Source: Acinetobacter phage Ab15 | Length of the DNA: 64,000 nucleotides | Reading direction: 5' to 3' (one strand) | Sequence record: PP763259.1 | Part shown: positions 44,443 to 63,733 of the stretch, in pieces | How the letters are laid out: every line of letters begins with the position of its first letter | Numbering within the stretch: the first letter of the stretch is position 1 | Translations under genes and position numbers: made by a program | The notes under the pieces: model-generated | The model's input: the letters and a program-made list of their open reading frames with translations, nothing else | Databases searched by the model: none | What the model was told of the DNA's origin: nothing

Positions 44443-44470
44443 AAAGGACCATATATGGTCCTTTTTGATT
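44443..44470 (+). terminator. rho-independent terminator
   Basis: Perfect palindrome AAAGGACCATATATGGTCCTTT followed by TTGATTT. Confidence 0.55.
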
Positions 44471-44484
44471 TAAAGGTGATAGAA

Positions 44485-45084
44485 ATGAAAAAACGAGTTT
44501 ATGGTGTAGGAATCAATGATTCTACTTTGCAAGTATGTCAGAGTAAAAAGAAACTTCCAGAATATAGGTTGTGGTGTAAGATGCTGGAGAGATGTTACAG
44601 TGATTTTTATCACAAAGAGCATCCAACCTACAAGGGATGTGAAGTGGAACCCTTTCTCCTATCCTTCACAAACTTCTATAATTTCGTAAGAAGTTTAAAG
44701 GGTTTTGGTGAGGTTGATGAGAAAGGTAGACCCTTCCAGATGGATAAGGATATTTTAGTTAAAAGGAATAAAACTTATGGGGTTGACACTATTTGTTTTG
44801 TACCACAAGAGATAAATCTATTTCTTGTCAATGCTAAACTGCTTAGAGGTGAACTCCCAGTTGGTGTTGATTATTGTGAAGGGAATGGTAAATATCGTTC
44901 TAGGTTGAGGGTGTTTAATAAGAAAAAGCATCTAGGGTATTTTTCTTCTGTTGAAGAAGCGTTTGCTGCATATAAAGTTGCAAAAGAGCGACACGCTAAA
45001 GTTTTAGCTTTAAAATGGAAAGACAAAATAGACCCTAGAGTATATAACGCACTTATGAAATACGAGGTGAGTATAGATGACTAA
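44485..45084 (+). CDS. AP2-domain protein, homing-endonuclease-like
   Basis: GKYRSRLRVFNKKKHLGYFSSVEEAFAAYKVA matches the AP2 DNA-binding domain found in phage homing endonucleases. The ATG at 44485 is preferred; the ORF-track start at 44455 lies inside the terminator hairpin. Confidence 0.5.
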   Translation: MKKRVYGVGINDSTLQVCQSKKKLPEYRLWCKMLERCYSDFYHKEHPTYKGCEVEPFLLSFTNFYNFVRSLKGFGEVDEKGRPFQMDKDILVKRNKTYGVDTICFVPQEINLFLVNAKLLRGELPVGVDYCEGNGKYRSRLRVFNKKKHLGYFSSVEEAFAAYKVAKERHAKVLALKWKDKIDPRVYNALMKYEVSIDD

Positions 45085-45277
45085 ATACAAAGTTGGTGAT
45101 AAAATAAAGGTGGTAGCTACCAAGTTACAACAACGAGATATAGGAATTACATCAGTAAATTTGAAAGGTGAGATTGGGGTTGTGAAATCAATCTGTAGTG
45201 ATGGGGTTACTGCAAATTTTAAGAAAGGTGGCGACTGGTCCTTACGCTTTAGTGATATCCAAAAAGTGGTTGAGTAA
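45077..45277 (+). CDS. small protein, VGD-family paralog (family A)
   Basis: MTKYKVGDKIKVV... shares its N-terminal motif with the 49.9-57.6 kb array. Confidence 0.4.
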   Translation: MTKYKVGDKIKVVATKLQQRDIGITSVNLKGEIGVVKSICSDGVTANFKKGGDWSLRFSDIQKVVE

Positions 45278-48905: not shown

Positions 48906-49120
48906 CATTCTTTAATGAAGGGCGTATTGGTGGAAAAGATGAGGTAGAGTTGGGAACTAGGGTAATATCAAGTCTCAATGTGCACAGTTTCAATAAAGTC
49001 ACCTACGAGTTTTCCTTCTTGATTTTTGGTGATGAGTTTGATAAAACTATCTACACACGCTTTGATATAGATTTTAATATCGAAGACCATGAAGAATTTA
49101 TCTGGAGAGATGATGGGTAG
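48887..49120 (+). CDS. small hypothetical protein
   Basis: 77 aa. Confidence 0.3.
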   Translation: MLEIKMTFFNEGRIGGKDEVELGTRVISSLNVHSFNKVTYEFSFLIFGDEFDKTIYTRFDIDFNIEDHEEFIWRDDG

Positions 49121-49394
49121 ATTTCAAATAGGTGAGGTTGCTATACTGGAAACCATCCCTGAAATTTTAAAAAGGGATTTAGCCATTTGTAAAATTCATG
49201 AAGGTGCAGTATGCAAAATTCTTGATATTATTGGTGATGGTAAAACACTGGTTATTGGAAATGAGAAATGGGACTGTTCTCAAGAGGTTGATGTTATGAG
49301 ACGTGCCAAAATTAAACCGCCAGAGAAATATTCTACATATAATGGTAAAGCTATACGTATTAACACTTTATTTTTAGGAAAAATTTATGGATAA
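49089..49394 (+). CDS. small hypothetical protein (SH3/KOW-like motif QIGEVAIL)
   Basis: 101 aa. Confidence 0.35.
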   Translation: MKNLSGEMMGRFQIGEVAILETIPEILKRDLAICKIHEGAVCKILDIIGDGKTLVIGNEKWDCSQEVDVMRRAKIKPPEKYSTYNGKAIRINTLFLGKIYG

Positions 49395-49453: not shown

Positions 49454-49870
49454 TTGGATTTTGGTCAGCTTACTTTATTTTTACCTAATAGGATTCCTAT
49501 GAAACAAATTATTTTTCTAGATGATGAAAGAGTTATCCAAGACGTAACTTGGATAGACTACTCTCAATGGTCAGGTGCTTATGTTATTTCTCAAAGTTCA
49601 GCTTCTCGTTTAATTTCGTACATTAAACATTATGGGAAATACTTTGACTGGGAAAATACTTTGTTTTCCTTAGACCATGACCTTCAGGATTTTGATGGGG
49701 AGGAAGAGTCTACAGGTTATACTTTCATTAAATGGTTGGTTGACTTTATGGTTGAGAACGAAATTTCTTTAAAGTACCTCCATGTAGTTGTGCACTCACA
49801 AAACCCTATTGGCAAAGAAAACATTGAAAAATATATCAGTAATGCTAAACTACACTATTTAGAATTCTAG
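49454..49870 (+). CDS. hypothetical protein
   Basis: 138 aa. Confidence 0.45.
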   Translation: MDFGQLTLFLPNRIPMKQIIFLDDERVIQDVTWIDYSQWSGAYVISQSSASRLISYIKHYGKYFDWENTLFSLDHDLQDFDGEEESTGYTFIKWLVDFMVENEISLKYLHVVVHSQNPIGKENIEKYISNAKLHYLEF

Positions 49871-49876
49871 GAGATT

Positions 49877-50095
49877 TTGATGGGATATTACAAAGTAGGT
49901 GATGTAGTTGAAATTACCAAACTAATAGCTTTAGATGAAGAACTTGGTATAAAAGTTGGGGATATTGCGAAGGTCCAACGAGTAAAAGATTACGATGATG
50001 GTGATCATCATATCATCTGTTATAATCCAAAATGGGATAGATTAACTGATAGATTAAGACGAATGGTCCCCCGACAGTTAAAAAAGGTGAAGTGA
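49877..50095 (+). CDS. family A small paralog (KVGDVVEI...VGDIAKV...YNPKW)
   Basis: Member of the tandem array; the motif skeleton is shared. Confidence 0.5.
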   Translation: MMGYYKVGDVVEITKLIALDEELGIKVGDIAKVQRVKDYDDGDHHIICYNPKWDRLTDRLRRMVPRQLKKVK

Positions 50096-50325
50096 TGAGG
50101 GATCGTCTACATGTTGATATAAAACTTGGTGACAAAGTAGTCGTATACTTTGCTATGGGTATTGACAAAAGGTACAACATAAAAGATGGAGATGTTGCCA
50201 AGGTGATACTAACTGATCAAGATGGTGCTTGGTGTTATAACCCTAATTGGAAAGTTGTAGAAGGTCAAGACCTTAAGATTAAAGCTAACTATATGTCATC
50301 TACACAAATAGAAAAGGTAAAGTAA
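50092..50325 (+). CDS. family A small paralog (LGDKVVV...DGDVAKV...YNPNW)
   Basis: Tandem array member. Confidence 0.5.
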   Translation: MMRDRLHVDIKLGDKVVVYFAMGIDKRYNIKDGDVAKVILTDQDGAWCYNPNWKVVEGQDLKIKANYMSSTQIEKVK

Positions 50326-50327
50326 AT

Positions 50328-50558
50328 ATGAGTTACGATGCTGATAAATTCGAATATGGCGATAAGGTTGAAGTTATGCAGCTTTGCACATTTGATGCAA
50401 CGTACAACATTAAAGTTGGTGATGTAGCCAAAGTAAGATTTGTTCAAACTACATTTAGTGGTGAACAATATATTGAGTGCTACAACCCTGAGTGGGACCA
50501 TGAGGGTATTGGTGGTGATCGGAACATGCTGGCTTGGCAAATTAAGAAGGTAGGCTAA
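50328..50558 (+). CDS. family A small paralog (YGDKVEV...VGDVAKV...YNPEW)
   Basis: Tandem array member. Confidence 0.5.
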   Translation: MSYDADKFEYGDKVEVMQLCTFDATYNIKVGDVAKVRFVQTTFSGEQYIECYNPEWDHEGIGGDRNMLAWQIKKVG

Positions 50559-50569
50559 GGAGGTGATTA

Positions 50570-50791
50570 GTGGGAAAATATAAAGTTGGGACTAAGGTTA
50601 AAGTTGTGAAACTAACTCAGGGCGACTTTGATAGGGGTGTTCGAGTAGGACATATTGCTAAAGTTCTTGAAGTAAGGGGTTTAGATGGGGCTGCCTATTG
50701 TCACAACCCCGAATGGGATTATAGAGGGTTACAACGTCAAAGTAGGACAATGTTACCCCACCAAATTGAAAAATGTGAGGTGCACAAGTGA
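50570..50791 (+). CDS. family A small paralog (KVGTKVKV...VGHIAKV...HNPEW)
   Basis: Tandem array member. Confidence 0.5.
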   Translation: MGKYKVGTKVKVVKLTQGDFDRGVRVGHIAKVLEVRGLDGAAYCHNPEWDYRGLQRQSRTMLPHQIEKCEVHK

Positions 50792-51021
50792 GTGTAGATT
50801 TTAGTCAAGATAAAAGTAAAGGCAAAGGTTTACCAATTGAGGAAATTCGTTATCGTGCACCAAAATATGCTACACATTATGAAATTCAAGGAAATGAGGT
50901 GGTATACTACGCTAAGGACCAAATAGGTCGTTGGTGCTATGTCGATGATGAAAGTGGTGGAGGTTGGCCTACACATTCTTGTGAATGGGATCGTCTGGAT
51001 AATGAACTGAAGCCACTTTAA
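50788..51021 (+). CDS. small hypothetical protein embedded in the array (no family motif)
   Basis: 77 aa; lacks the VGD/NPxW skeleton. Confidence 0.4.
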   Translation: MSVDFSQDKSKGKGLPIEEIRYRAPKYATHYEIQGNEVVYYAKDQIGRWCYVDDESGGGWPTHSCEWDRLDNELKPL

Positions 51022-51022
51022 T

Positions 51023-51244
51023 GTGGTTTTACTTTTTGGAGATTATGTGATGTTGAAAGTTGGTGATAAAGTAGAGGTGATAGAGGTTTTAGCTGCCGAT
51101 GAGTGGGCTAATATTAAAGTAGGTGATGTTGCAAAAGTCACTGTGGTGAGAGGTCCTTTTTGGATTCAATGTGAAAATCCTGAATGGGTAGACGGTTTCA
51201 TGCCTATGAGAGAATACCAAATCAAAAAGGTAGGTAATTTATGA
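51023..51244 (+). CDS. family A small paralog (KVGDKVEV...VGDVAKV...ENPEW)
   Basis: Tandem array member. Confidence 0.5.
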   Translation: MVLLFGDYVMLKVGDKVEVIEVLAADEWANIKVGDVAKVTVVRGPFWIQCENPEWVDGFMPMREYQIKKVGNL

Positions 51245-51435
51245 GTTACCATTTAAAGGTTGGAGATAAGGTGGAGATCACGTGGATTCACCAACTTGAT
51301 GACTGCGATGGAATTAAGGTTGGTGATGTTGCAAAGATTGTTTGCGTGATTAATGAAAGGTGGTACATCTGTGCTAATCCTAACTGGTTGGCTGGAAAAA
51401 TGCCAATGAAAGACTACCAAATCAAAAAACTTTAA
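51241..51435 (+). CDS. family A small paralog (KVGDKVEI...VGDVAKI...ANPNW)
   Basis: Tandem array member. Confidence 0.5.
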   Translation: MSYHLKVGDKVEITWIHQLDDCDGIKVGDVAKIVCVINERWYICANPNWLAGKMPMKDYQIKKL

Positions 51436-51454
51436 AAATTATTTTAAAAAGTTG

Positions 51455-51483
51455 TTGACAGGAAAATTAAATACCACTAACAT
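51455..51483 (+). promoter_or_regulatory. early promoter AAAGTTGTTGACA-N17-TAACAT
   Basis: TTGACA at 51455-51460 and TAACAT at 51478-51483, upstream of the AAA+ gene. Confidence 0.5.
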
Positions 51484-51571
51484 AAGCATCATAGAGAACA
51501 AGCAAACAAAGTTCTTAGTGAAATACTTGAATAAACAGCACATTGGTGCACAAACTATCTAGGAGATATTA

Positions 51572-52765
51572 ATGGATTTACTTATTGGTCATTCTTACCA
51601 GTTAATCAACACTAAAGATCCAGCTTTCATGTTCACAACTGGTTTTAGTGACCCTAAGACAAATAAAGTCATTAAAGATGCTGTTATTAAACCATACAGC
51701 AAAGATGATGATGGTGATGTTTTTGCTTATGCATACTTCCCAGATCGTCAAGACACTATTATCAATCCAGATCACAATGTGTTGATCATTCGAAGTGAAT
51801 TTGATTTGTTTAAAGAAGTTGGTGCTGGTGATCAATCTCAACCAGAAGTGGATGGAATTGAAGAAAGTGAAGTATTCTCTCACAATCTTAAGAAGATGTT
51901 CCAAGAGATGGTTGATAAAAACCTAGGCTCTGAAGAGATGCAAGCGAAGATCACTGAAACTATCCGTGAAACTGTGCTAGAGCAAGCTCCACGACCACTT
52001 GAGGTTAAATTTGGTGAGAAGACAACTGTAATTGGTACTGCTCACGTAATGCTTGAAGAAGCTTTAAAACGCTTGAATGCAACAAAGAACATTATGTTGG
52101 TTGGTCCTGCTGGTTCTGGTAAGACTTACCTTGCAGCACAACTTGCAGAGTCTTTACAGCTTGACTTCTCATCAATTTCTTGTAGCTCTGGTATGTCTGA
52201 ATCAGTAATTACTGGTTGGTTGTTACCTGTTGATGGTGGTGCATTTGAATACCATGAAAGTGACTTTATTCGAATTTACGAAAATGGTGGTGTGTTCTTG
52301 TTTGATGAAATGGATGCTGCTGACCCATCTATCCTATTGATCATCAACCAAGCATTAGCTAATGGTAAAATTACAGTTCCACAGCGTAAAGGTAATACAG
52401 AAGTTAAACGACATAAAGACTTCATTTGTGTGGGTGCATGTAACACATTTGGTCGTGGTTCTAACTTGATGTACTCTGGTCGTGAACGTTTAGATGAATC
52501 AACCCTTGACCGTTTCCGTTTAGGTTTGATGGAAATGGATTACGACAAGCTCCTTGAAGAAAAAGTTGTTGATAAAGCTGTTCGTGAATGGGCTTGGCAA
52601 GTACGTGCTCGAATTCAGGAAAGTGGTTTACGCCGAGTGATGTCAACACGTTTCATGATCGATGCAACTAAGTTGTTACAAAATACTGATGCAACAATGC
52701 AGAAAGTAAAAGATATCTTCTTTGTTGGTTGGTCTGATGACGAGAGACATAAAACTGATTTATAA
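51572..52765 (+). CDS. AAA+ ATPase, MoxR/CobS-like
   Basis: Walker A LVGPAGSGKTYLA, Walker B VFLFDEMDAA and a downstream Arg-rich sensor region. The N-terminal roughly 170 aa domain is of unknown function. Confidence 0.7.
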   Translation: MDLLIGHSYQLINTKDPAFMFTTGFSDPKTNKVIKDAVIKPYSKDDDGDVFAYAYFPDRQDTIINPDHNVLIIRSEFDLFKEVGAGDQSQPEVDGIEESEVFSHNLKKMFQEMVDKNLGSEEMQAKITETIRETVLEQAPRPLEVKFGEKTTVIGTAHVMLEEALKRLNATKNIMLVGPAGSGKTYLAAQLAESLQLDFSSISCSSGMSESVITGWLLPVDGGAFEYHESDFIRIYENGGVFLFDEMDAADPSILLIINQALANGKITVPQRKGNTEVKRHKDFICVGACNTFGRGSNLMYSGRERLDESTLDRFRLGLMEMDYDKLLEEKVVDKAVREWAWQVRARIQESGLRRVMSTRFMIDATKLLQNTDATMQKVKDIFFVGWSDDERHKTDL

Positions 52766-52780
52766 CAAAAACTTCCCAAG

Positions 52781-52817
52781 AAACCCCTAAAGGAATTCCT
52801 TTAGGGGTTTTATTTTG
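52781..52817. terminator. rho-independent terminator, near-twin of the one at 16451
   Basis: Perfect palindrome CCCCTAAAGGAATTCCTTTAGGGG followed by TTTTATTTT. Confidence 0.65.
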
Positions 52818-52894
52818 CATAAATTTTACTTGATTTAAAAATAGAATTTGTTTAGAATCTACTTAGTTATTAAGCTCAATAAGAGGATATCTCA

Positions 52895-53788
52895 ATGTAT
52901 AAATCTGTTGAAAATGTTAAAGGTTTGCACGGTAAAGTGGCGATCGTTAAATATAGAAATGTTTCTGATGCTATGGACCACTATAAAAAATATGATGTGG
53001 ACATCCCTTTCAAGCACAATAAAGGTAAGGTTTCAGAGTATCGTGGTGGTCATCATAGTACTGATTGGACAGGTTTTAGTGATCAACGTCACTTTGAACA
53101 AACTATGCTTCATGGTGATAAAATCAAAGCGATTGAGATTGAAGAAATTCAAGCACCAGAAGTTAAGGTTGAGTCACGTAAACGTAAACGCCATAAAGGG
53201 CCTATCGGTGATACTTTAGATATTCATGCAGTATATCGTGGTGAATTGGATCGTGCATGGACCTATACCAAACGTGATATGCATGATGGTGGTATGAAAA
53301 ACATCACCCTCCTAATTAACATTGGTGATAACTGTGGTATTTCCTCACAGGCATTAGGGTGGCGTGGTGCAGTGGCATTGAAAGTCTGTGATGTGATGAC
53401 TGAAGCTGGCTACAATGTTCGAATCATTGCTAACCAAATGACTGAAGATTTAACCCGTGATGACGATGGTTATGGCTACAATTGCACAACTGTTAAGGAC
53501 TTTGATGAATACTTGGATGTGCCTAAGCTTGCTGCAATCTTCTGCCGTGCAGGTTTCTTCCGTTCAGTAATCTTCACCACAATTGTTTATGAAGCTGAAT
53601 TACTGGGGAAACGTGTAGGTTACGGTTTAGGTCGATCTATCAAGTCACACAGTGAGGAAGGTAAGAAGCTAATCGAACATGTGCACCAAGATGAAGGATA
53701 TATGGTGGTATTCCCTTCGGTGAATGGTAAAGAGGATGCTTTAAATGCCATGAAGGAGATCTTAAAGCCTTATTTAATTGAGGAATAA
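52895..53788 (+). CDS. hypothetical protein, candidate partner of the AAA+ ATPase (possible degenerate VWA fold)
   Basis: 297 aa. The segment ITLLINIGDNCGISS resembles a VWA beta1-MIDAS region (DxSGS), but degenerately. It is adjacent to the MoxR-like gene. Confidence 0.4.
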   Translation: MYKSVENVKGLHGKVAIVKYRNVSDAMDHYKKYDVDIPFKHNKGKVSEYRGGHHSTDWTGFSDQRHFEQTMLHGDKIKAIEIEEIQAPEVKVESRKRKRHKGPIGDTLDIHAVYRGELDRAWTYTKRDMHDGGMKNITLLINIGDNCGISSQALGWRGAVALKVCDVMTEAGYNVRIIANQMTEDLTRDDDGYGYNCTTVKDFDEYLDVPKLAAIFCRAGFFRSVIFTTIVYEAELLGKRVGYGLGRSIKSHSEEGKKLIEHVHQDEGYMVVFPSVNGKEDALNAMKEILKPYLIEE

Positions 53789-53790
53789 TC

Positions 53791-54084
53791 ATGGATCGTC
53801 AAGAGATGATTAAGAAGTACCCTATCGGCTCTAAGCTGGTAGGGAGGTATCTAGGACACAAAAAGTCTTCAAGTGAAATGATTTGTAAGGTTGTTGGTTA
53901 TTCTGCTTTCAGAACTTCGATTTTAGTCTATAATCCAGAAATAATTGGTCATACTGGTACTGGAAGATGTGTAGATCAAACAGGATCTAGAATTTCTGGG
54001 GAAAAGATAAAAGATTTTTATGGTAACCATTGTTGGTATATAGATAGTGAGACCTTATCTGGGTATAGATTATGCAAAAGATAA
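53791..54084 (+). CDS. family B small paralog (YPIGSKL...VGY...YNPEIIGHTG...G.HCWY)
   Basis: One of four tandem paralogs with conserved Cys/His positions. Confidence 0.5.
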   Translation: MDRQEMIKKYPIGSKLVGRYLGHKKSSSEMICKVVGYSAFRTSILVYNPEIIGHTGTGRCVDQTGSRISGEKIKDFYGNHCWYIDSETLSGYRLCKR

Positions 54085-54401
54085 ATCCTAAATTAAAAGA
54101 ATTAGTCAAAAGATTTCCCATAGGTAGTAAGGTGGTAGCAGACAAAAATCATACCTCATCAGAAATATTTGATGAGTGTGGTTATGCCTACGTGGTTGGA
54201 TATGGTTGTGATACCAAGCTAACATATGATGAATTTGGTTGGTTATTGTTGCACCACCCAGACTTTGATGGTCATAGTGGTAATTCTTATGGAATTCTTG
54301 GTGCTAATTTTGAGTTGTACCATGAGGGTGAAATTCAAAAGAAATATGGTTGTACCTGTTGGTGGGATACTGGAGGTCATTGTCAGTTATTGAAGGAGTG
54401 A
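54072..54401 (+). CDS. family B small paralog (FPIGSKV...HHPDFDGHSG...GCTCWW)
   Basis: Tandem paralog. Confidence 0.5.
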   Translation: MQKINPKLKELVKRFPIGSKVVADKNHTSSEIFDECGYAYVVGYGCDTKLTYDEFGWLLLHHPDFDGHSGNSYGILGANFELYHEGEIQKKYGCTCWWDTGGHCQLLKE

Positions 54402-54407
54402 GTTCAC

Positions 54408-54719
54408 GTGTCGGAAGAAAATGAAGTGGAAATTGTGAAAGAATTGGCGAAAAGGTTCCCCATAGGATGTAAAGTTGCCAAAGGTGATGTATACAATTCC
54501 TCTATATTTCACTATGTAGATTTTGCATATGTCATTGGTTATAATATTTATGGTAATGATCACTGGTTACTTCTCTACAATGAAGATTTTGAGGGTCATT
54601 CATCAATTCATGGTGCACTAGTACACAACCATAAAAAATGCTCTATGGCTGAGATTAAAAAGAAGTACGGAAGGCATTGCTGGTGGGCTGATTCAAAATT
54701 AGTAAAAAGGGTGGGATAG
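54408..54719 (+). CDS. family B small paralog (FPIGCKV...YNEDFEGHSS...GRHCWW)
   Basis: Tandem paralog. Confidence 0.5.
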   Translation: MSEENEVEIVKELAKRFPIGCKVAKGDVYNSSIFHYVDFAYVIGYNIYGNDHWLLLYNEDFEGHSSIHGALVHNHKKCSMAEIKKKYGRHCWWADSKLVKRVG

Positions 54720-54723
54720 TAAT

Positions 54724-55005
54724 ATGCAGAAAGTTTCCAGTGATTTAGTTGATAAATTCCCTATTGGATGTAAAGTAATGGTGATTATTGGAGATGGTAG
54801 GTGGAAAACTGGAGATATTGGCAAGGTTATAGGTTATGGTGATACAGATGAGGTTGTTGTACATAATCCAAGTATAGAAGGGCATAGTGCAGCAACTTCC
54901 TGTTTTGATGAGAATGGTTGTAGGATCAAAGATGAAGTAAGGTTAAAATATGCAGGTCATTTATGGTACATCCATATAAGAAGTGTAGAAAGAATTGGAG
55001 GTTAG
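54724..55005 (+). CDS. family B small paralog (FPIGCKV...HNPSIEGHSA...GHLWY)
   Basis: Tandem paralog. Confidence 0.5.
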   Translation: MQKVSSDLVDKFPIGCKVMVIIGDGRWKTGDIGKVIGYGDTDEVVVHNPSIEGHSAATSCFDENGCRIKDEVRLKYAGHLWYIHIRSVERIGG

Positions 55006-55008
55006 GTT

Positions 55009-55470
55009 ATGAGTAAGCAAGTAGAAAACCCTAAGTACAAATCCTTAAAACAACCTACAGGTAATGGTTCATATCGCCCTAAAGGTTATGGCTGGGTGCA
55101 AGTTGATAAGTTAGTAGGTTCTGACAATCAGTATGGTATTGTAGAGAATGGTATCTATAAGGTTGTGGTTTACAATCCTTTAGGTGTAATTATTATTACT
55201 CCAAATGCCCCGTATGGTGACAACACAAGAGAGCTAATTAAGGATCAATATCATTGGGTTTCATTTGATGATGTCTTTAATCCAATACCTGAAGATGAAG
55301 AACTGAAGGTTGGTGATAGGGTAATGCTTAATCAAGACTACAACACCTATAAAAAAGGTTATGTTATGAAAGTAAAAGAAATCAGAAAAGATGGTGACGA
55401 ATTGCTTGTACAACTTTGTAATCCGAGTACATCCTTCTGGGCTTATTCTCATAGAATACGTAAATTCTAA
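55009..55470 (+). CDS. N-terminally extended family A-like protein (KVGDRVML...CNP)
   Basis: 153 aa. The C-terminal half carries the family skeleton. Confidence 0.45.
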   Translation: MSKQVENPKYKSLKQPTGNGSYRPKGYGWVQVDKLVGSDNQYGIVENGIYKVVVYNPLGVIIITPNAPYGDNTRELIKDQYHWVSFDDVFNPIPEDEELKVGDRVMLNQDYNTYKKGYVMKVKEIRKDGDELLVQLCNPSTSFWAYSHRIRKF

Positions 55471-55554
55471 TTCAGTTTCCCTTGAAAACTTGCACAAACA
55501 ATCAAGAAATGGTAATATGCACCTATTAATCAACCAAGCATTGTAGGTGCTAAA

Positions 55555-56019
55555 ATGGCTAAACATTTTAAGTATACTAAACATCTTGAATCACAAAATT
55601 CTCAAACAATGGCATCACCATTTAATAAAGTGACTACTTATGTAGCTCGCTTTTTTCGTGTTGCCTTTAAAAACTTCTCAAGTATGTTTGAGGGTGGAAG
55701 TCCTCAAGATATCGTGCGAGATAGATTTAAAGAGTGGCACGAAGATGTAAACCTTGCAAATAAGAAGGTGACTTATCAAGTTGGTCAGAGAGTTACTATT
55801 AATGATGTTTCTTATTTTGAGAAATACAGAGGTTTTCATGCTGGTGATGTTGCAAAAATTACCAAATTGATTAATGAGGATGGTGTTGAGAAGTTAGCAC
55901 TCTTCAATCCTAAATGGATTACTGCTAAAGATGAACTTGGTTTGGGTTGTGTAATTGTTGATCCTAAGAAATGCATGGTGGAGATTGTTGGTGTAAAATC
56001 TGGGGGTGTAAATGTATAA
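55555..56019 (+). CDS. N-terminally extended family A paralog (QVGQRVTI...AGDVAKI...FNPKW)
   Basis: 154 aa. Confidence 0.45.
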   Translation: MAKHFKYTKHLESQNSQTMASPFNKVTTYVARFFRVAFKNFSSMFEGGSPQDIVRDRFKEWHEDVNLANKKVTYQVGQRVTINDVSYFEKYRGFHAGDVAKITKLINEDGVEKLALFNPKWITAKDELGLGCVIVDPKKCMVEIVGVKSGGVNV

Positions 56020-56260
56020 TGAAGGTCTACCTGTAGATGGTGCTAAAATAGTGGTTAACAACCCTGATGGCATATCCAGAAGCACCTACAACGTAAGAGA
56101 AAACGATGTGGCGAAAGTAGTGGGGAGAATTCATGGTTCTGGTTACAGTATACTAGCATACAATCCTGATTGGAAAAATAAAGAGAGGGATCACGATGCA
56201 TTTACATACAAGGGACCTTGTGTGGTATTGTGTCGCAGTGAGTATGAGGTAATTGAGTAA
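56012..56260 (+). CDS. family A small paralog (DGAKIVV...ENDVAKV...YNPDW)
   Basis: Tandem array member. Confidence 0.5.
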   Translation: MYNEGLPVDGAKIVVNNPDGISRSTYNVRENDVAKVVGRIHGSGYSILAYNPDWKNKERDHDAFTYKGPCVVLCRSEYEVIE

Positions 56261-56583
56261 TGGAAATGTGGGATGGTTATGGTGTGTCAAGCTATGCAAA
56301 AGGTGAAGGTGAAAAGAAGTCTTCGGAAGTTTTTGTAGGTTCAAAGATAGTTATAACAAAACCTGACAGTGTTTCTATTGAAAGGAATGCTCTTAATGGT
56401 GATATTGGGAAGATTGTGTGCATAGAAACTGGTGTTTTTGGAGTAACTAGGTATCTGGCATATAATCCAAAGTGGAAATGTCGTGACGATGGTATGCAGG
56501 AGGATTTTAGATATGATGGATTGTTCATCGTCCTTTCGAGAAGAGAGTTTGAGGTGATTCGATATGAAAACAAAAGTTGGTGA
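56260..56583 (+). CDS. family A small paralog (VGSKIVI...NGDIGKI...YNPKW)
   Basis: Tandem array member. Confidence 0.5.
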   Translation: MEMWDGYGVSSYAKGEGEKKSSEVFVGSKIVITKPDSVSIERNALNGDIGKIVCIETGVFGVTRYLAYNPKWKCRDDGMQEDFRYDGLFIVLSRREFEVIRYENKSW

Positions 56584-56776
56584 TAAAATCAAAATAACCT
56601 CTCTTGATAAGTACAGTTATGCTACAGGAGTAGAAATAGGACATATTGGTAAAGTTGTTGAGGTTTACCCTGCTGGGTGCTTTGCTGAGAATCCGTTGTG
56701 GGGTGAAGGTTCAACAGGATTCTTTAACAATGAATTTGAGGTCTTAAAGGAATCTGAGGGGTTAAACGATGGCTGA
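56564..56776 (+). CDS. family A small paralog (KVGDKIKI...IGHIGKV...ENPLW)
   Basis: Tandem array member. Confidence 0.5.
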   Translation: MKTKVGDKIKITSLDKYSYATGVEIGHIGKVVEVYPAGCFAENPLWGEGSTGFFNNEFEVLKESEGLNDG

Positions 56777-57038
56777 GTGTTATTATTGGGATGTACCATC
56801 ACAAGTTAAAGAGCCTACAATAAAAGTTGGCGATAAGGTTGAGATAGTTGATCCTTGGCAGCTTGACAAACGACTTGGAATTCAGGTTGGGGATGTGGCT
56901 AAAGTGGTTTATGTGGGAAATGATCACTTAAGGTGCAATAATCCAAGATGGAATATATGTGATCATAAGATCGGCAGGGTGATGGGCTTAAATCAAATTA
57001 AGCTGATTGTGAATACTCATAAGGAAGAATATCTATGA
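56769..57038 (+). CDS. family A small paralog (KVGDKVEI...VGDVAKV...NNPRW)
   Basis: Tandem array member. Confidence 0.5.
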   Translation: MAECYYWDVPSQVKEPTIKVGDKVEIVDPWQLDKRLGIQVGDVAKVVYVGNDHLRCNNPRWNICDHKIGRVMGLNQIKLIVNTHKEEYL

Positions 57039-57292
57039 AAGAACCAGAAATTGGCACAAAAGTTGTAATTGTTAATCCTGATGACCGTTCTCGTGCAGAA
57101 GGTATTGTTGAAGGTGATGTTGCGAAGGTTGTTGGGGTGGAGGCTTCCATAAAAAGTTGTGATTTACTACTTCTCTTGCACAATCCTAAGTGGAAAAACA
57201 TGCATGAAGATGTTCTAAGTTGTAACACACCTTGTCATCTTGTATACTTATCTGAATGTGATATTTACGAAGAATGCCTTAAGGGGGATTAG
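57035..57292 (+). CDS. family A small paralog (IGTKVVI...EGDVAKV...HNPKW)
   Basis: Tandem array member. Confidence 0.5.
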   Translation: MKEPEIGTKVVIVNPDDRSRAEGIVEGDVAKVVGVEASIKSCDLLLLLHNPKWKNMHEDVLSCNTPCHLVYLSECDIYEECLKGD

Positions 57293-57294
57293 TT

Positions 57295-57645
57295 ATGAGT
57301 GCTAAGATACCAGAAATACCACCTATACCAAAACCAGAGCCAGAAAAACCTTATGAAAGTTCTCCGATTGTATATAGTCGATTTAATCATCAAAAGTGTC
57401 AGTATGAAGTATTTTCTGTAGGTGAGAGGGTGAGAATATTCCTTTACGGATCTCAATTCCTGAATAATTATGGGATTTACGATGGTCAAGTAGGGAAAAT
57501 TGTAGAGATAAAAAAGGTTGATATGGGGAATGGACGTGTTGTTGCTAAGATTTACATAAAAAACCCACTATGGCACTATAAATTACCCGACAAAGACCCT
57601 ACAATAATGGAGTTTTTGGATCATGAAGTTTCCAAGTTGGAGTAG
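57295..57645 (+). CDS. family A-like small paralog with a Pro-rich N-terminus (VGERVRI...GQVGKIVEI...KNPLW)
   Basis: 116 aa. Confidence 0.45.
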   Translation: MSAKIPEIPPIPKPEPEKPYESSPIVYSRFNHQKCQYEVFSVGERVRIFLYGSQFLNNYGIYDGQVGKIVEIKKVDMGNGRVVAKIYIKNPLWHYKLPDKDPTIMEFLDHEVSKLE

Positions 57646-57755: not shown

Positions 57756-58076
57756 ATGCCCAATGTAGATTTAGAGAGCTTATTTAGCCTCAATCCTGAT
57801 GATAGACCAGTAGGTTATCAGCCAAAGGATGTTAAAATTATTATAACAGCACCACAACAAGAAAAGGTTATCTTTAAAGGTTGGGACATGAGTAGGCGAG
57901 ATGGTGTCCGTAGAGAGATACCTGTAGGTACTGTGTTTAAAGTCATAGATGTGACCAAGAATGGTAGATTCATTAAAGGAACTAATCCCGATTACACCTT
58001 AAGTGGTATTGTTTTTTATAACACTGAGGTGGAATATGCTATGGTTCCTGTAGAGTTGGTTGAAATTGAGGTTTAA
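57756..58076 (+). CDS. small hypothetical protein (weak family A-like motif VGTVFKV...TNPDY)
   Basis: 106 aa with RBS AGGAGG. Confidence 0.4.
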   Translation: MPNVDLESLFSLNPDDRPVGYQPKDVKIIITAPQQEKVIFKGWDMSRRDGVRREIPVGTVFKVIDVTKNGRFIKGTNPDYTLSGIVFYNTEVEYAMVPVELVEIEV

Positions 58077-58856
58077 AGAATTATTTAAATACTACCTTAA
58101 AACCTACCTTTGAGGATACCTCTAGCATTGCCTACTTGGTGTCTTTGTTGTTTGTGGGTAGTAAACATGAAAATTTAAGTGACTACTTCTAGGGATTCCC
58201 TCAAGGTATATTCTTTGTGCTTAAGTTAAAACTGTACCACATAATGGTTTATTTGTCAATATTTAAAAACCTTGTCAATAGTTCGTTTGTTCATTATTTA
58301 AACTAAAATTAACTAAAGTATTGTATTTTAAGGTAATAAAGTTTGTGTGCTAATATTACAACTATATAACTACCTATATTACTACCTATATGGCATATTT
58401 GTGTATTTCTTAAACAATTAGATAAATATTTAAAATTATTTTGTAAATTGTTTGTAAATCTCACAATAATTTCCTATATGGTTCATAAATATAAGAAAAC
58501 CTTAGTTTTTGTGTGTTTTTAAAATATATTATTTATCAAGTAGTTAATAAACCTTGAAGGCTATGCTTAATTCATCCTTCAATCTTATCCTTCACAATAT
58601 ATTAAAAGGTGAGGGTTATTTTTGAGAGTATCCTTAAGGGAATCCTTCAAGGTAGGTTTCACTTTGTAGATTATATTTGTAAATTATATTTGTAGTTTCT
58701 CTTGTCTTTTCTCTTGTTATTTTTAGCACTCTCTCAAAGGTTGTAATGTTGTTGTAATCCCTTGTAGGCCAATGTTGTGGGGTTTCTTGTAGGATTCCTT
58801 GTAAAAGTAGTAGGGGATTTTTAGAGGGTAGAAGGAGGTTCTGTGGCGAGTTTTTA

Positions 58857-58963
58857 GGGGATAACTCTTAGGGATAGCCTGAAGGTTTCTTTAAGAGATA
58901 ACTTCTAGGTTTCCTCTGGGGATAACCTCTGGGTTTACTTTGGAGATAACCTCTAGGTTTCCT
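58857..58963. repeat. iteron array: four direct repeats of about 21 bp (consensus GAGATAACCTCTAGGTTTCCT) at 24-36 bp spacing
   Basis: GATAAC hexamers begin at 58861, 58897, 58921 and 58945. Confidence 0.6.
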
Positions 58964-59028
58964 GAAAGGTCAAGTAAAGGCTTTTTCGATATTTTTTCAC
59001 ATATACATAGGATGGGCGACTTTAGTCG

Positions 59029-59057
59029 TTGACATTTCAAATGAACTCAGGTAAGAT
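59029..59057 (+). promoter_or_regulatory. sigma70-like promoter TTGACA-N17-TAAGAT
   Basis: TTGACA at 59029-59034 and TAAGAT at 59052-59057, just upstream of the 59085 gene. Confidence 0.5.
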
Positions 59058-59084
59058 TCCCTTAAGATTAAAAAGGAGGAAATT

Positions 59085-59618
59085 ATGTCCTACAAATCAG
59101 AGGTGCGAAACTCTAAAAATTTAACCCTAGAGGGATTACCTCAAACACCATTAACTAACCCATTGGCTTACTCCCCAAAATACTTAGGTAGTGCTACAGA
59201 AGAAATTGACATTATTGTGCTCCTAGATGGTTTAATAACAGACCCTAAAGTTTCCCGTATCAGTGCGGACATTGTGCTAGACACTATGACAATTACCTAC
59301 AAGGCATCCATAGACAATCTATACAAAGAGGTTGTGCTAAAGCACTCACCCAACGGAGCACCAGTAAAGGGACTCAATAGAGTATATTGTCAGATTATCA
59401 GTAAAACGGATGAAAGTCAAGAAGATTTGGAGGATAAACCCGTAAAGTATTACTTTGAGGTATGGCGCACTAATACCGAAGGGGAAATTGTAGAGCAACA
59501 TTGTGCCCAACTTCTGCCACTATTAAACCTGTTATACCCTACAATTCGTGCCTTTAAGGTTAGATTAGGTGGGATTATCCAACAAGTTGACATTGTTGGT
59601 GCTATTCTGTTAGAATAA
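59085..59618 (+). CDS. hypothetical protein
   Basis: 177 aa with RBS AAAGGAGG. Confidence 0.5.
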   Translation: MSYKSEVRNSKNLTLEGLPQTPLTNPLAYSPKYLGSATEEIDIIVLLDGLITDPKVSRISADIVLDTMTITYKASIDNLYKEVVLKHSPNGAPVKGLNRVYCQIISKTDESQEDLEDKPVKYYFEVWRTNTEGEIVEQHCAQLLPLLNLLYPTIRAFKVRLGGIIQQVDIVGAILLE

Positions 59619-59716
59619 ATGCAATTCGACTACAATAATTTGATCTTAAGTCCCCTGAAGGATAACCTAGGGGGATATTCTTAAAGATATTTTAAAAGTG
59701 GTAGATATTTTAAAAA

Positions 59717-60034
59717 TTGTCAGAAAAATCCGAAAAAGTGGGAAAAGTTTGGGAAATTGTTATGGATATGTTTGATTCTTGGTATTCTGTATCAGAGGTG
59801 TATGCGGTAGAGGATAAGCTGAAGGTGGGTTGTATTAGAATGCAAGTATGTGTTGCGGATAGTGCACAGTATGTTTCATACCTCATGTTATGTAAGTTTG
59901 AGGATATTAACCTTAAACATGTCCTAATGATGAAGCTTGCAAGAATAGCCCAGAAAAGAGGAATAAGAGGTAAGTTCATCGTGACAGCAGAGGACTCTTA
60001 TGGTAACACAACAAGCCATGTCATAGATTCATAG
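59717..60034 (+). CDS. hypothetical protein
   Basis: 105 aa. Confidence 0.4.
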   Translation: MSEKSEKVGKVWEIVMDMFDSWYSVSEVYAVEDKLKVGCIRMQVCVADSAQYVSYLMLCKFEDINLKHVLMMKLARIAQKRGIRGKFIVTAEDSYGNTTSHVIDS

Positions 60035-60500
60035 GAATTTTTGAAAAATTTTTTGAAATTTTGAAATTTGAGATTTCTATATTTGGTGCGAAACCAAAAA
60101 AGTGACCCTAAAAATATTCTCCACCCCCTAAAAATCACTCTTCAAAAGTAAGTCTTCTGGAAGCCTTTAAAATCAACCCCTCGGTTCATCGTTATAACAT
60201 TACTATAACAAAAACCTACTAAAAACCCCCTTAAAAATTACCTAAAAGGTGTAGACATCGAACCCTTTTCTGTGGTATCCGTGCACGTTTCTTTATATAG
60301 GAAAGACGAAAGGGTGTATCTCAACCTTTCCATTGGTGAATATCCTTTGGTTCTTTGTTGGTAATGATAAAAGACTGGTTAAAATTCACCTAAATAAATG
60401 ATTTTCTATAACTACTAATAAAAGATTTAATAAAATAAACAATTAAATTATCTTTATTTTCATGTATTTATGATTATTTTTAGTATTATTTTAAAATTTT

Positions 60501-60980
60501 TTGAAGGAAAGTCTTGCAATGAATCTAAAATTTGTTATTATGAACTCATACCAAGCAAACAAGCTAAACAAGCTTAAAGGAAAGACTATGAACAATATGA
60601 TTAACGTACCAGTGGAATTTGTAATTGATGCTTTACAAGCTCGTTATGATGATGTGAAACAACATTGGGGTAATGATGCAAGTGAAGCCCTATGGGAGCA
60701 AGCTCTAGATTTAGTTGAGGAATGCGGATTAGGCAGTGACATTACAAGTCCAAGTGCTTATGTAGACAATTATCTCATTAATGGGGAGTTTATTAGTAAA
60801 GAGGATAATATAGAAGATTGGTTACACAAAACTTCTCATGACGGGTGTTTTGAACAATTGAATTATGAAGGCGATGAATACGACCAATGGCTAGATGATA
60901 ACTTTGATAATTTCTGGCAAGAGTATTGTCAAGATAACGCTCTAATCTATAACGATGAATATGCTTGCTTATCGTTCTAA
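60501..60980 (+). CDS. acidic hypothetical protein
   Basis: 159 aa, follows an AT-rich 500-nt gap. Confidence 0.45.
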   Translation: MKESLAMNLKFVIMNSYQANKLNKLKGKTMNNMINVPVEFVIDALQARYDDVKQHWGNDASEALWEQALDLVEECGLGSDITSPSAYVDNYLINGEFISKEDNIEDWLHKTSHDGCFEQLNYEGDEYDQWLDDNFDNFWQEYCQDNALIYNDEYACLSF

Positions 60981-61017
60981 CACCTAAATAATATTTAATT
61001 TATAGTGAGTATTTAAA

Positions 61018-61215
61018 ATGATTAAATTAAAAGTTGCTTTAATTATAGTTGACTTTAAAAACAAACATTCCTTAAAGTTGAAATTTATCAGTAGAAAAGA
61101 TGCTTTTAATGTTTTACAACAAGATTGGAAGTTACTCAAAAGTGAGGTAGAAAACTTGGAATTAAATTTAAGTTTAATTAAAGATGATTTACACATTTAT
61201 TTAATTGAGTGGTAA
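61018..61215 (+). CDS. small hypothetical protein
   Basis: 65 aa in an AT-rich region. Weak call. Confidence 0.25.
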   Translation: MIKLKVALIIVDFKNKHSLKLKFISRKDAFNVLQQDWKLLKSEVENLELNLSLIKDDLHIYLIEW

Positions 61216-61317
61216 CAGTTAGACAAACGTGCATTGTATTAATAGTGATATGATGCACAATATTAAATGATTCCTTCGGAGTTTTTATTCCATTACATTT
61301 CATAAAGGTAACATAAC

Positions 61318-61461
61318 ATGAAACATTATCAGATCATTCATAATGGCTTGGTTTATTGTGTAGACGTCTATGCATCATCTAAAAGAGAAGCTATTGCACA
61401 ATACAGACAGCAATGGAGTCTTGAAGGAAAACGCATTAACTTGCAATGTTGGGAAGTTTAA
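61318..61461 (+). CDS. small hypothetical protein (47 aa)
   Basis: Open frame MKHYQIIHNGLVYCVDVYASSKREAIAQYRQQWSLEGKRINLQCWEV, below the ORF-track threshold. Confidence 0.25.
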   Translation: MKHYQIIHNGLVYCVDVYASSKREAIAQYRQQWSLEGKRINLQCWEV

Positions 61462-61661
61462 ATATGACATACTCACTAATTAACACGAATAAATGTGATG
61501 TAACTGCAATTGAGGTTATTTATAAAGGAGGTAAACGGCGCATATTCAATCTTAAAAACAAAGTTTATCGTCATGATGCTATAGAATTACAAACTAAGCT
61601 TGAGAATTATGACAACGTGTTCCGTGTAAATTGTCATACAACATTAAACCACTATATATGA
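61446..61661 (+). CDS. small hypothetical protein
   Basis: 71 aa. Confidence 0.35.
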   Translation: MLGSLNMTYSLINTNKCDVTAIEVIYKGGKRRIFNLKNKVYRHDAIELQTKLENYDNVFRVNCHTTLNHYI

Positions 61662-61673
61662 GGATATAACACA

Positions 61674-61880
61674 ATGTTAATCATTAACCGTTACAAGTGT
61701 CCAATATCAGGTAAGACTTCGATATGTGCCCATAAAGTTAATAATATGAAAGTGATTAAGAGCTATAAACCATGCGATGAATCTTTCATCGAAATGCTAT
61801 CGCAAGGACATAAGCAATTTCTATTGTGTGATGTTCCAAATTATAGTATGTTAAGTAAAATCAATATTGTTAAGAGTTAA
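61674..61880 (+). CDS. small hypothetical protein
   Basis: 68 aa. Confidence 0.35.
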   Translation: MLIINRYKCPISGKTSICAHKVNNMKVIKSYKPCDESFIEMLSQGHKQFLLCDVPNYSMLSKINIVKS

Positions 61881-62103
61881 TTGGGAGTATATGAAAATGA
61901 TTAAATCGTTCAGCAAAAATGGTAAATATTATTATTGCAAAACAGATCAAAGTAATTGGTCACAATGGGCATGTCGTCATGAAGATGGATTGGAAACATT
62001 TGCTAAAGTAAGTGTAGCATCTTACAAATTGAAAAGACAAAATGTAATAGATGCGATTGATAATGTTGAAAATCGTTATTCAAGTGATGAGGTGTATAAA
62101 TGA
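61867..62103 (+). CDS. small hypothetical protein
   Basis: 78 aa. Confidence 0.35.
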   Translation: MLRVNWEYMKMIKSFSKNGKYYYCKTDQSNWSQWACRHEDGLETFAKVSVASYKLKRQNVIDAIDNVENRYSSDEVYK

Positions 62104-62396
62104 AAACCGCACATTTAGAAAAAGAGTTTAATGCTCTAATTGATGAACATGAAAAGAAGCTTGAAGCTTTAGCGGAGAAGGTTAGGCAAGAGGTTATAAT
62201 TCCTTATTGCAGAAAGAAAGGCTATGAGTATATATCTGGTATGGGTGACTTCTTTTTTAATGTTGTCAAAACCAATGAGATTATAGACATATGTTGGGAT
62301 AGTACAAATAAGGTTGATAAACTATTGTGCATGGAAATCAATTACAATCATCAATTAGGGGATTATATAAGAACTGTAAGAGAGTGTGATTTATGA
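62100..62396 (+). CDS. small hypothetical protein
   Basis: 98 aa, overlapping stop and start. Confidence 0.4.
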   Translation: MKTAHLEKEFNALIDEHEKKLEALAEKVRQEVIIPYCRKKGYEYISGMGDFFFNVVKTNEIIDICWDSTNKVDKLLCMEINYNHQLGDYIRTVRECDL

Positions 62397-62680
62397 AGAT
62401 TACAAAAGAACATGCATTATTCTATGCAAGCAAGAAAAGTAAGCTTTTCCCATGTGATGTTAGTATTCATACATTGATTAACTCTCAAGTACACATTGAA
62501 AGAAATGTATACGAGAAGTATAACGATTTAGCCATTGTTAATAGTCTTTACCAACGTTGTAAACGTAATGGTTTAAACTTAATAGCTGAATTAAGAGTGC
62601 TATCATGGAATAGTAAAGGTTTAAGGCATCATAGGGCAAGACTTTGTAGAAAGATTATTAAAAAATTATTAAGGGTGTAA
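62393..62680 (+). CDS. small basic hypothetical protein
   Basis: 95 aa. Confidence 0.35.
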   Translation: MKITKEHALFYASKKSKLFPCDVSIHTLINSQVHIERNVYEKYNDLAIVNSLYQRCKRNGLNLIAELRVLSWNSKGLRHHRARLCRKIIKKLLRV

Positions 62681-62796
62681 GTTAAAATACTTACATCTTT
62701 TTTTATTGTCTGAAAATAATTAAAGATGGTATTGCAGTCTTTTATTATTCATGTATAATCAGTCTTAGAAACAACAAACATTGTAGAGATTCCCAA

Positions 62797-63132
62797 ATGG
62801 CTAAATTACTTGTAATTAAAACAACACAAGCAATAATCTATGTTGCAAATGGTAAAGTTACACTAGTTAAAAATGCCTTAAATGGTCGTTTTATGAAAAT
62901 CGCTAAATTTGCCAATATTGTGGACAATTTGATTGTAGCTGCTAAAAAAGCTAATTCTGCTATTAGCCAACACAAGACTTTTTACTATAACATTGAAACA
63001 AAATTAGCTTTGCGTAAATTTAAAAGTCTAGCGAAAATGGCTATTGCATTGTTAGGTGATGTTTTGGTGCATGTAAGCCGTAACTATCGCCATGATGACT
63101 TTGATTTTACATTATTGGCTATGTACTCTTAA
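62797..63132 (+). CDS. hypothetical protein
   Basis: 111 aa. Confidence 0.4.
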   Translation: MAKLLVIKTTQAIIYVANGKVTLVKNALNGRFMKIAKFANIVDNLIVAAKKANSAISQHKTFYYNIETKLALRKFKSLAKMAIALLGDVLVHVSRNYRHDDFDFTLLAMYS

Positions 63133-63171
63133 GAGTATACATTAACAACATTCTATATAAGGATTAACACA

Positions 63172-63357
63172 ATGAGTATTAAACAACATGTAGGAGGTTT
63201 TCTCTTCACGTTCGGTCTAGTAGTAGCTCTAGGGTTATTCTATAGCGCCGTTGCTGAAGGTAATAACCTGAAAGATACACTTTTATCAGTCCTTTTCGGT
63301 TTAGCCCTTGTATGGGCTATTGTAAAGGCATTCAAACAAAATAAACTTAGAGGATAA
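63172..63357 (+). CDS. small membrane protein (two TM)
   Basis: Hydrophobic stretches GGFLFTFGLVVALGLFYSAV and LSVLFGLALVWAIV. Confidence 0.35.
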   Translation: MSIKQHVGGFLFTFGLVVALGLFYSAVAEGNNLKDTLLSVLFGLALVWAIVKAFKQNKLRG

Positions 63358-63362
63358 CCCAC

Positions 63363-63719
63363 ATGGATTTTATTGAGCAACGACCTACCCCCAAAGCGGT
63401 TAGCACTCATTTTCTAGCTGACATAGGCACTACAAGCAACCCACAAGAATCTGTAACGGTGCATATCAAAGTTTTATACCCTAGTGTCATCACTCAGTTA
63501 GGAAATGAAGGGTTGAGCTTTGAAGCATGCCAAAACGAAGATGATCACGGGTACAAGGTCCTATTTTGTGCTTTTAAAGACTATCTTTCCGAAGCTGCAT
63601 TAATCATTAAGTGTAAAGATGATGTAGATAGTGTAACCTTAATTGAATTGGCACTGGATTACATCGGAGCGGGTAACCTCAAATATGTTGTCAGTGAGCG
63701 TTACATTGAAGCTCTATAA
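63363..63719 (+). CDS. hypothetical protein
   Basis: 118 aa. A terminator follows. Confidence 0.4.
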   Translation: MDFIEQRPTPKAVSTHFLADIGTTSNPQESVTVHIKVLYPSVITQLGNEGLSFEACQNEDDHGYKVLFCAFKDYLSEAALIIKCKDDVDSVTLIELALDYIGAGNLKYVVSERYIEAL

Positions 63720-63733
63720 TTAGTTATCTATCA

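Follow-up and report, generated by a model that had tools for sequence, protein, structure and literature searches.

What are the many small genes packed between positions 49,877 and 57,645 of a 64,000-nucleotide (nt) stretch of Acinetobacter phage Ab15 (PP763259.1; "the window" denotes this whole stretch), and what might a phage do with so many of them? A first-pass annotation, made from the sequence alone, had described a tandem array of at least 15 diverged paralogs sharing one skeleton, and this description is borne out by profile E values set against shuffled sequences and by alignment. The region holds a lineage-specific, tandemly expanded family of stand-alone SH3-like barrels, each gene of which is under purifying selection, and its repertoire turns over fast among near-identical phages through gain, loss, replacement, and recombination between paralogs.

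A hidden Markov model (HMM) seeded with the eight obvious copies recovers those copies at E values of 1e-24 to 1e-32, matches five more open reading frames (ORFs) at 1e-7 to 1e-11, and matches another two at about 1e-4; upon iteration, the profile converges on 18 ORFs, exclusively on the + strand. The final profile, built from 167 domains, finds 15 ORFs at E ≤ 5e-10 (best, ~1e-25) that contain 16 domains between 49.1 and 57.6 kb, followed by the ORFs starting at 54724 (2e-7), 45077 (5e-5), 57756 (3e-4), and 38523 (1e-3). As a control, the 321 ORFs of the window were each shuffled ten times: among the resulting 3,210 shuffled ORFs, the best reached E = 0.34 with the iterated profile and 0.11 with the final one. 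Fourteen strong members fall within 49877–57645 (starting at 49877, 50092, 50328, 50570, 51023, 51241, 55009, 55555, 56012, 56260, 56564, 56769, 57035, and 57295), and ORF 54724 (E = 1.8e-7) is the fifteenth. With the inclusion of a diverged branch (branch B, at 53791–55005, as distinct from the main branch, family A) and of outliers at 45077, 38523, and 57756, the family numbers about 19 to 22.

The common skeleton is visible in the translations and is retained under MAFFT alignment, and both example strings quoted by the first-pass annotation are present (in ORFs 51241–51435 and 51023–51244). Its interval ends where the array ends but begins too late, as one member lies earlier, at 49089–49394 (E = 5e-10). 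Likewise, its remark that almost every gene of the interval belongs to the family covers the 15 members, but a nonmember gene at 50788, an AAA_5 ATPase (51572), and a DUF7192 protein (52895) also lie inside, as do the diverged branch B genes at 53791, 54072, and 54408. Members are stand-alone ORFs without any other Pfam domain and measure 64 to 154 amino acids (aa), not 65 to 110 aa. Codon-aligned nucleotide identity among the eight core copies is 46 to 62% (median, 54%) instead of the 65 to 75% first estimated, with amino acid identities of 30 to 59%; the view of an old, diversified family is supported.

For the domain, which spans ~60 aa, AlphaFold confidently predicts a five-stranded SH3-like/KOW-like barrel (predicted local distance difference test [pLDDT] score, 95). 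This barrel is structurally similar to the REP domain of MIB1, with structure comparison scores of 9.1 for the Hpy99I N-domain, 9.0 for OapB, 8.9 for the SH3-like domain of Xrn1, 8.5 for the NusG KOW domain, 8.2 for the Spt5 KOW domains, 7.8 for the RfaH C-terminal domain (CTD), 7.6 for MIB1 MZM-REP, and 7.0 for YorP. A profile search of the PDB found no sequence-level relation to solved structures (best E = 0.03), and matches in BFVD are limited to the orthologues in the related phages AM24 and R2096 and to other uncharacterized phage proteins.

Over the 167 domains, six positions are near invariant: G8 (99%), G28 (87%), K32 (95%), N46 (96%), P47 (94%), and W49 (99%). D29 is present in 66%, and the family signature can be written as G..GD.AK....NPxW. 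Entropy exceeds 3 bits at positions 14–23, 35–43, and 50–59, and the β1–β2 loop and helix, the β2–β3 hairpin, and the β3–β4 region are almost maximally variable; in branch B, the NPxW loop is replaced by an insertion of ~30 aa. Isoelectric points (pI) range from 4.6 to 9.6 across members, a heterogeneity in charge that speaks for different partners rather than for a shared nucleic acid ligand.

Selection was gauged from ratios of nonsynonymous to synonymous substitution rates (dN/dS; Nei-Gojobori method), comparing window genes with orthologues at ≥70% identity. Family A yields 0.33 when pooled and 0.18 to 0.53 per gene, which is purifying but relaxed; branch B yields 0.77, and nonfamily neighbors yield 0.14. 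At the protein level, family genes evolve about twice as fast as their neighbors. These values indicate that the family genes are functional. Diversifying selection in the sense of dN/dS above 1 is not seen, and classical positive selection is not demonstrated in family A. The branch B gene at 54724–55005 has a dN/dS of ~1.1 over five orthologues and is the only gene of the region near or above neutrality.

The region from 49 to 58.5 kb matches seven GenBank records at 92 to 97% identity, in patches that cover 64 to 90% of its length; these records are all from ~97-kb Acinetobacter baumannii myophages, namely Herod, YMC13/03/R2096 (two records), P577, Bestia, AM24, and Mithridates. A tblastn search of 50,697 phage records with one copy as the query matched the seven records of this AM24/R2096/Herod group and no others. 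In IMG/VR, a core-pattern scan based on a tight core alignment picked up the R2096 genome alone; among 185,579 GTDB species genomes, it picked up none. So restricted a distribution is typical of accessory host interaction genes. The distant phage relative L015, whose shared genes are 33 to 55% identical, has no copy of the family, which points to an expansion specific to the Acinetobacter lineage.

Within this lineage, the same region of six near-identical genomes holds very different complements: 16 copies in the window, 14 in Herod, 20 in Mithridates, 16 in AM24, 14 in Bestia, and 12 in R2096. Copy number variation between related phages is thus both present and large (12 to 20 copies). At ≥70% identity, the 92 genes of the six genomes fall into 34 types, of which five occur in all six. 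Comparison of the window with Herod shows some copies with 100% identity whose neighbors are 37 to 53% identical, a pattern indicative of cassette replacement. Recombination between members also occurs, as evidenced by a metagenomic chimera (P0028) that joins the N terminus of 55009 to the body of 56260 at 97.6% identity. Twenty copies are present, with synteny preserved, in a 99-kb Logan contig that is more diverged.

To what known family do these domains belong? Among the 19 members searched, Pfam, NCBIfam, and PADLOC yielded no recurrent match (PADLOC-DB, 0 of 19), and 16 matched phrog_5785 of PHROGs v4, a family listed as being of unknown function (best E = 1.3e-24). In all matching GenBank records, the AAA ATPase is the only gene of the 49- to 58.5-kb region not called "hypothetical protein"; the statement that this is not a standard annotated module therefore holds. 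HMMER over 1.84 billion cluster representatives returned 105 clusters at E ≤ 1e-3, most of which are 30 to 75% identical to copies of the six phages and keep NPxW. The others are of two kinds: phage proteins with three to six fused copies (P0019, P0032, P0041, and P0044) and eukaryote-type proteins composed of SH3_15 "Mind bomb REP" repeats (e.g., P0043 and P0087, the second of which also bears WW and RING domains). Domain fusion also occurs in the window, where ORF 55009 has two copies. P0019 consists of four fused copies (690–1631 of the unrelated phage contig L012, which has PhoH, Peptidase_M15, and HNH genes); a locus search with this protein gave only spurious short matches.

The family profile matches the repeats of P0043 and P0087 at domain E values of 1e-5 to 2e-8. 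By hhalign, the family aligns with the fused-repeat group at 97.9% (E = 6e-13) and with SH3_15-type repeats at 95.4% (E = 1.7e-8), the latter over 60 columns, i.e., the full length, with the invariant Trp aligned. The Pfam model of SH3_15 (PF18346) matches no window member and picks up only the distant multirepeat proteins P0043, P0087, and P0054. Judged by profile comparison, the nearest named family is SH3_15/Mind bomb REP; the predicted fold is KOW/SH3-like. SH3_15 is preferred over KOW because the 95.4% compares with an hhalign value of 0.4% to the KOW domain (CTD) of Escherichia coli NusG; moreover, KOW (PF00467) matches none of the 19 members at E values up to 10. The first-pass suggestion of a KOW/SH3-type β-barrel is hence right about the fold and wrong about KOW at the sequence level, and KOW was rejected as a family assignment. 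Canonical SH3 models (SH3_1/SH3_2) fare no better, with one member matching SH3_2 at E = 0.26 and no recurrence across members. DUF4314 (PF14192) matches no window member, and only the distant multidomain protein P0041 passes its cutoff, at 31.7 bits.

On the basis of fold, remote homology, and evolutionary behavior, the best reading is that the copies may be modules that bind proteins or peptides, with targets that differ from paralog to paralog and are most plausibly host proteins that vary between strains (host takeover or counter-defense); we consider the chances of this to be about even. Each copy would be a small binding module for a protein or peptide, as is its nearest named relative, Mind bomb REP/SH3_15, with variable loops that would give each paralog its own target and invariant residues that would either make a contact shared by all copies or hold the structure in place. 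Collectively, the copies would amount to an exchangeable set of binders or inhibitors directed at host proteins that vary between strains, and the members a given phage carries would help to determine the range of A. baumannii strains open to it. The combination of a fixed scaffold, a few fixed residues, and hypervariable loops over 167 domains favors this reading, as do the kinship to SH3_15-type repeats and the rapid turnover of the repertoire, and the host takeover or anti-defense role named at the outset is a reasonable inference.

Several points weigh against such binding modules. An SH3-like fold does not specify function. No family A gene reaches a dN/dS ratio of 1, such that the case for classical positive selection is not made, and the invariant residues could be purely structural rather than clustered on the surface. 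The lack of PADLOC matches says little either way, given that PADLOC covers defense proteins and not anti-defense. Nor is placement in an "early region" demonstrated: the arrays occupy the distal end of a replication/nucleotide metabolism block, and a promoter scan found fewer sigma-70-like sites than in shuffled sequence (54 versus 67), making it uninformative on early expression.

A bolder version, which is possible but which we doubt, has one scaffold duplicated 15 to 20 times and reshuffled between phages into a binder library, each copy of which would neutralize or hijack a different strain-variable host protein (a defense component, for example), with the repertoire setting the host strain range. 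If true, the library would parallel, in a bacterial virus, the host range multigene families of poxviruses and would provide compact ~60-aa binders of A. baumannii proteins from a natural source.

Other functions for the same barrel have to be set against binding modules with separate targets. Were the copies KOW-type factors, they would mimic the CTD of NusG or RfaH or bind RNA in the manner of OapB and thereby redirect transcription-translation coupling, Rho termination, or ribosomes. This is unlikely: beyond the absent Pfam KOW match and the 0.4% to NusG, the wide range in pI leaves no common basic surface, and S10, Rho, and rRNA are highly conserved, such that 15 to 20 hypervariable and rapidly exchanged copies would go unexplained. 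Alternatively, K32, N46, P47, and W49 might line a pocket for one small ligand, such as an immune signaling nucleotide, in which case the proteins would be "sponges" and their variable surface would reflect drift or differences in oligomerization. Six near-invariant positions, including Lys, Asn, and Trp, amid a freely varying surface are the pattern expected of a ligand pocket, and many known phage sponges are likewise small proteins from accessory regions. Still, we think sponges quite unlikely, as a single ligand does not call for 15 to 20 paralogs at 30 to 59% identity, there is no sequence-level likeness to any solved structure, and the insertion that replaces the NPxW loop in branch B would destroy a common pocket.

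Three further explanations were weighed. Because the arrays surround the AAA_5 and DUF7192 genes, and this order (array–AAA_5–DUF7192–array) is kept in the window, the five related phages, and the diverged contig L011, the copies could be adaptors, substrates, or cofactors of the embedded module. All genomes with this order, however, represent one lineage; three independent contigs have the AAA_5–DUF7192 pair and no family member (best E, ~0.5), no such module lies close to the gene of the fused-repeat relative P0019, and downstream of the ATPase gene lies a strong terminator-like hairpin. Lack of co-occurrence largely refutes this link, which we rejected as very unlikely. That the copies are minor structural or decoration proteins of the virion, or are injected with the DNA, would accord with the frequency of SH3-like barrels among phage structural proteins but is highly improbable: the arrays lie ≥33 kb from the tail/baseplate module and continue the replication/nucleotide metabolism block, and the repertoire differs between phages whose other sequence in the region is 92 to 97% identical. 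Finally, very short genes annotated only as hypothetical proteins might be nonfunctional duplication debris or overcalled ORFs. Purifying selection on each family A gene and the confident fold refute this and leave it next to no probability; in addition, orthologues are kept across phages, and matches occur on the coding strand only and not in shuffles.

Whichever function applies, ~19 of roughly 180 genes (about a tenth) belong to one uncharacterized domain family, and it is in this family that otherwise near-identical isolates differ most in the gene content of the region. Should the copies prove to be host interaction modules, their repertoire could help to explain strain-specific infection outcomes beyond capsule recognition, and they would offer a tractable, diversifying binding scaffold whose genes are short, whose fold is confidently predicted, and for which natural variants and chimeras exist. 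AM24, R2096, Herod, and their relatives are lytic phages of A. baumannii, and R2096 has been tried against carbapenem-resistant A. baumannii in animal infection models, as reported (PMC6444642). Already known are the fold, the concept that phages carry hypervariable clusters of accessory genes, and the family as an unannotated PHROG; the present analysis adds how far the family has expanded, its turnover and chimeric genes, the assignment of the fold to it, the link to SH3_15, and the signature. A literature search on DUF7192, DUF4314, and arrays of SH3-like paralogs in phages found nothing relevant.

The family genes, all on the + strand, form two arrays (49.1–51.4 kb and 53.8–57.6 kb) that flank the AAA_5 ATPase and DUF7192 genes; within the arrays, genes are codirectional and tightly packed, with overlaps of 1 to 20 nt, in an operon-like manner. 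Array 1 opens with the member at 49089–49394 (101 aa, domain at aa 27–77; E = 4.7e-10), whose Herod orthologue is 92% identical. Between it and the rest of the array sits a 138-aa protein gene (49454–49870, +) with a cyclic phosphate-processing receiver domain (cREC_REC, PF20274; E = 2.8e-16), whose conservation extends to the related phages and to contig L011. From 49877 to 51435, there follow core family A genes at 49877–50095 (72 aa, a seed sequence; E = 3e-24), 50092–50325 (77 aa; E = 9e-21), 50328–50558 (76 aa; E = 4e-24), 50570–50791 (73 aa; E = 8e-25), 51023–51244 (E = 3e-23), and 51241–51435 (64 aa, modeled with AlphaFold2). The second of these overlaps the preceding gene by 4 nt and lacks an orthologue at ≥70% identity in any of the five related phages. 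The gene at 51023, by comparison one of the five sequence types common to all six phages, encodes 73 aa from a GTG or, probably, 64 aa from an internal ATG. The unrelated gene interposed at 50788–51021 (+, 77 aa) has a homologue in L015 (ORF at 12869) that is 44% identical over 48 aa.

The four branch B genes lie just upstream of array 2 proper (55009–57645). These are 53791–54084 (97 aa, the family barrel with an insertion after β3; HMMER E = 0.014, joined to the family by the hhalign comparison of A with B), 54072–54401 (109 aa) and 54408–54719 (103 aa), both placed by the family B alignment and the profile link between A and B, and 54724–55005 (93 aa, modeled with AlphaFold2), which bridges the two branches. 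The link itself is an hhalign value of 93.5% (E = 2.3e-7) between the family A and B profiles. Both within its insertion and beyond it, branch B keeps G-H, Y, H, and W residues invariant, and these might form a site for a metal or ligand.

Array 2 begins with a two-domain gene at 55009–55470 (153 aa; aa 29–81 and 99–153, with domain E values of 4.9e-8 and 1.1e-11), followed by 55555–56019 (154 aa, with a 70-aa N-terminal extension; E = 7e-16), 56012–56260 (82 aa; E = 1.4e-17), 56260–56583 (107 aa; E = 1.2e-20), the core copies 56564–56776 (70 aa; E = 2.7e-20) and 56769–57038 (89 aa; E = 2e-24), 57035–57292 (85 aa; E = 1e-19), and, as its last clear gene, 57295–57645 (116 aa; E = 1e-15). This final protein has a proline-rich N-terminal extension (IPEIPPIPKPEPEKP) ahead of the SH3-like domain, as does the related metagenomic protein P0074; the extension could be a ligand for the protein itself or for other paralogs.

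Four more distant copies had been proposed, with mixed outcomes. The solitary 66-aa ORF at 45077–45277 (+) stands as a distant member without the NP box (E = 5e-5, or 2e-7 with the iterated profile); an HNH endonuclease gene at 44455–45084 (+; phrog_953, E = 3e-69) ends 8 nt inside its start. The 106-aa ORF at 57756–58076 (+), with NPDY instead of NPxW, is a weaker, possible member (HMMER E = 2.7e-4; hhalign, 15.6%), with counterparts in AM24 (E = 6e-4) and Bestia (E = 8e-5). For the 190-aa protein at 38523–39095 (+), the claim holds over the N-terminal half only: its first ~50 aa resemble β1 plus β2 (hhalign, 76%, E = 2.3e-5, 33 columns; HMMER E = 1e-3), and it is probably a diverged or partial relative. 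ORF 29353 was rejected (hhalign, 1.8%; family profile E above 1). By eye, the small overlapping-frame ORFs at 29136–29381 and 29353–29607 (+) show KVG/GKI-type strands that look SH3/KOW-like; neither matches the family profile (E above 1).

The AAA_5 (MoxR/CbbQ-type) ATPase (51572–52765, +) and the DUF7192 protein (52895–53788, +) that separate the arrays constitute a conserved two-gene module, which is also found in three independent phage-like contigs (L014, L015, and L016) at 35 to 44% identity; in L016, the two are separated by an acetyltransferase gene. In the window, a promoter-like TTGACA-17-TAACAT (51455–51483) precedes the ATPase gene, and the terminator-like hairpin between the two genes (52780–52811, +) has a 14-bp stem, six GC pairs, and a T-rich tail. 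In Mithridates (L002, 4887–5762) and Bestia (L004, 3850–4722), an additional − strand gene of ~290 aa separates the ATPase gene from the DUF7192 gene. The window, Herod, AM24, and R2096 lack this gene, which may represent a mobile insertion.

On a larger scale, the window begins with the tail/baseplate module (0–16 kb), continues with ribonucleotide reductase on the − strand (16.5–21.5 kb), and then enters a codirectional replication/nucleotide metabolism block (22–48 kb) with primase/helicase, DNA polymerase, exonuclease, and thymidylate synthase; the arrays thus belong to the nonstructural part of an AM24/R2096/Herod-type myophage. No tRNA genes were found in the window. Its last part, 58000–64000, is AT rich (GC, 0.31 to 0.35 versus 0.35 to 0.40 elsewhere) with few ORFs over 100 aa, and the ORFs tested there (59085 and 60501) have no Pfam match; its counterpart in related records lies at the genome end.

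Of known families, phrog_5785 is the same family as the window members; PHROGs states no function, fold, or copy number, and the present analysis supplies a fold, SH3_15 as the nearest named relative, a signature, and an evolutionary behavior. NusG, Spt5, and RfaH KOW domains and the KOW-like OapB show no sequence relation, and the phage copies differ from them in lacking an NGN or ribosomal protein context and a uniform basic surface. T4 MotB is likewise a phage protein from an early, "nonessential" region, with a predicted KOW/SH3-like N-terminal domain, and acts on H-NS-bound DNA (PMC7827196); unlike the family, it is a single-copy, DNA-binding protein of two domains (KOW plus OB). The closest relatives outside the lineage, the metagenomic P0019 and P0032, are also phage encoded but fuse three to four tandem copies into one polypeptide, have the Trp of NPxW replaced (NPDR/KPTW), and form no gene array. 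The REP domain of Mind bomb (MIB1) recognizes a short peptide epitope, the C-box of Notch ligand (JAG1/Delta) tails (PMC11887331), a binding mode known for MIB1 that the phage proteins may share. Mind bomb carries its repeats inside a eukaryotic RING E3 ligase, whereas the phages encode theirs as separate genes of 64 to 154 aa, marked by an NPxW signature that is found only in the phage family.

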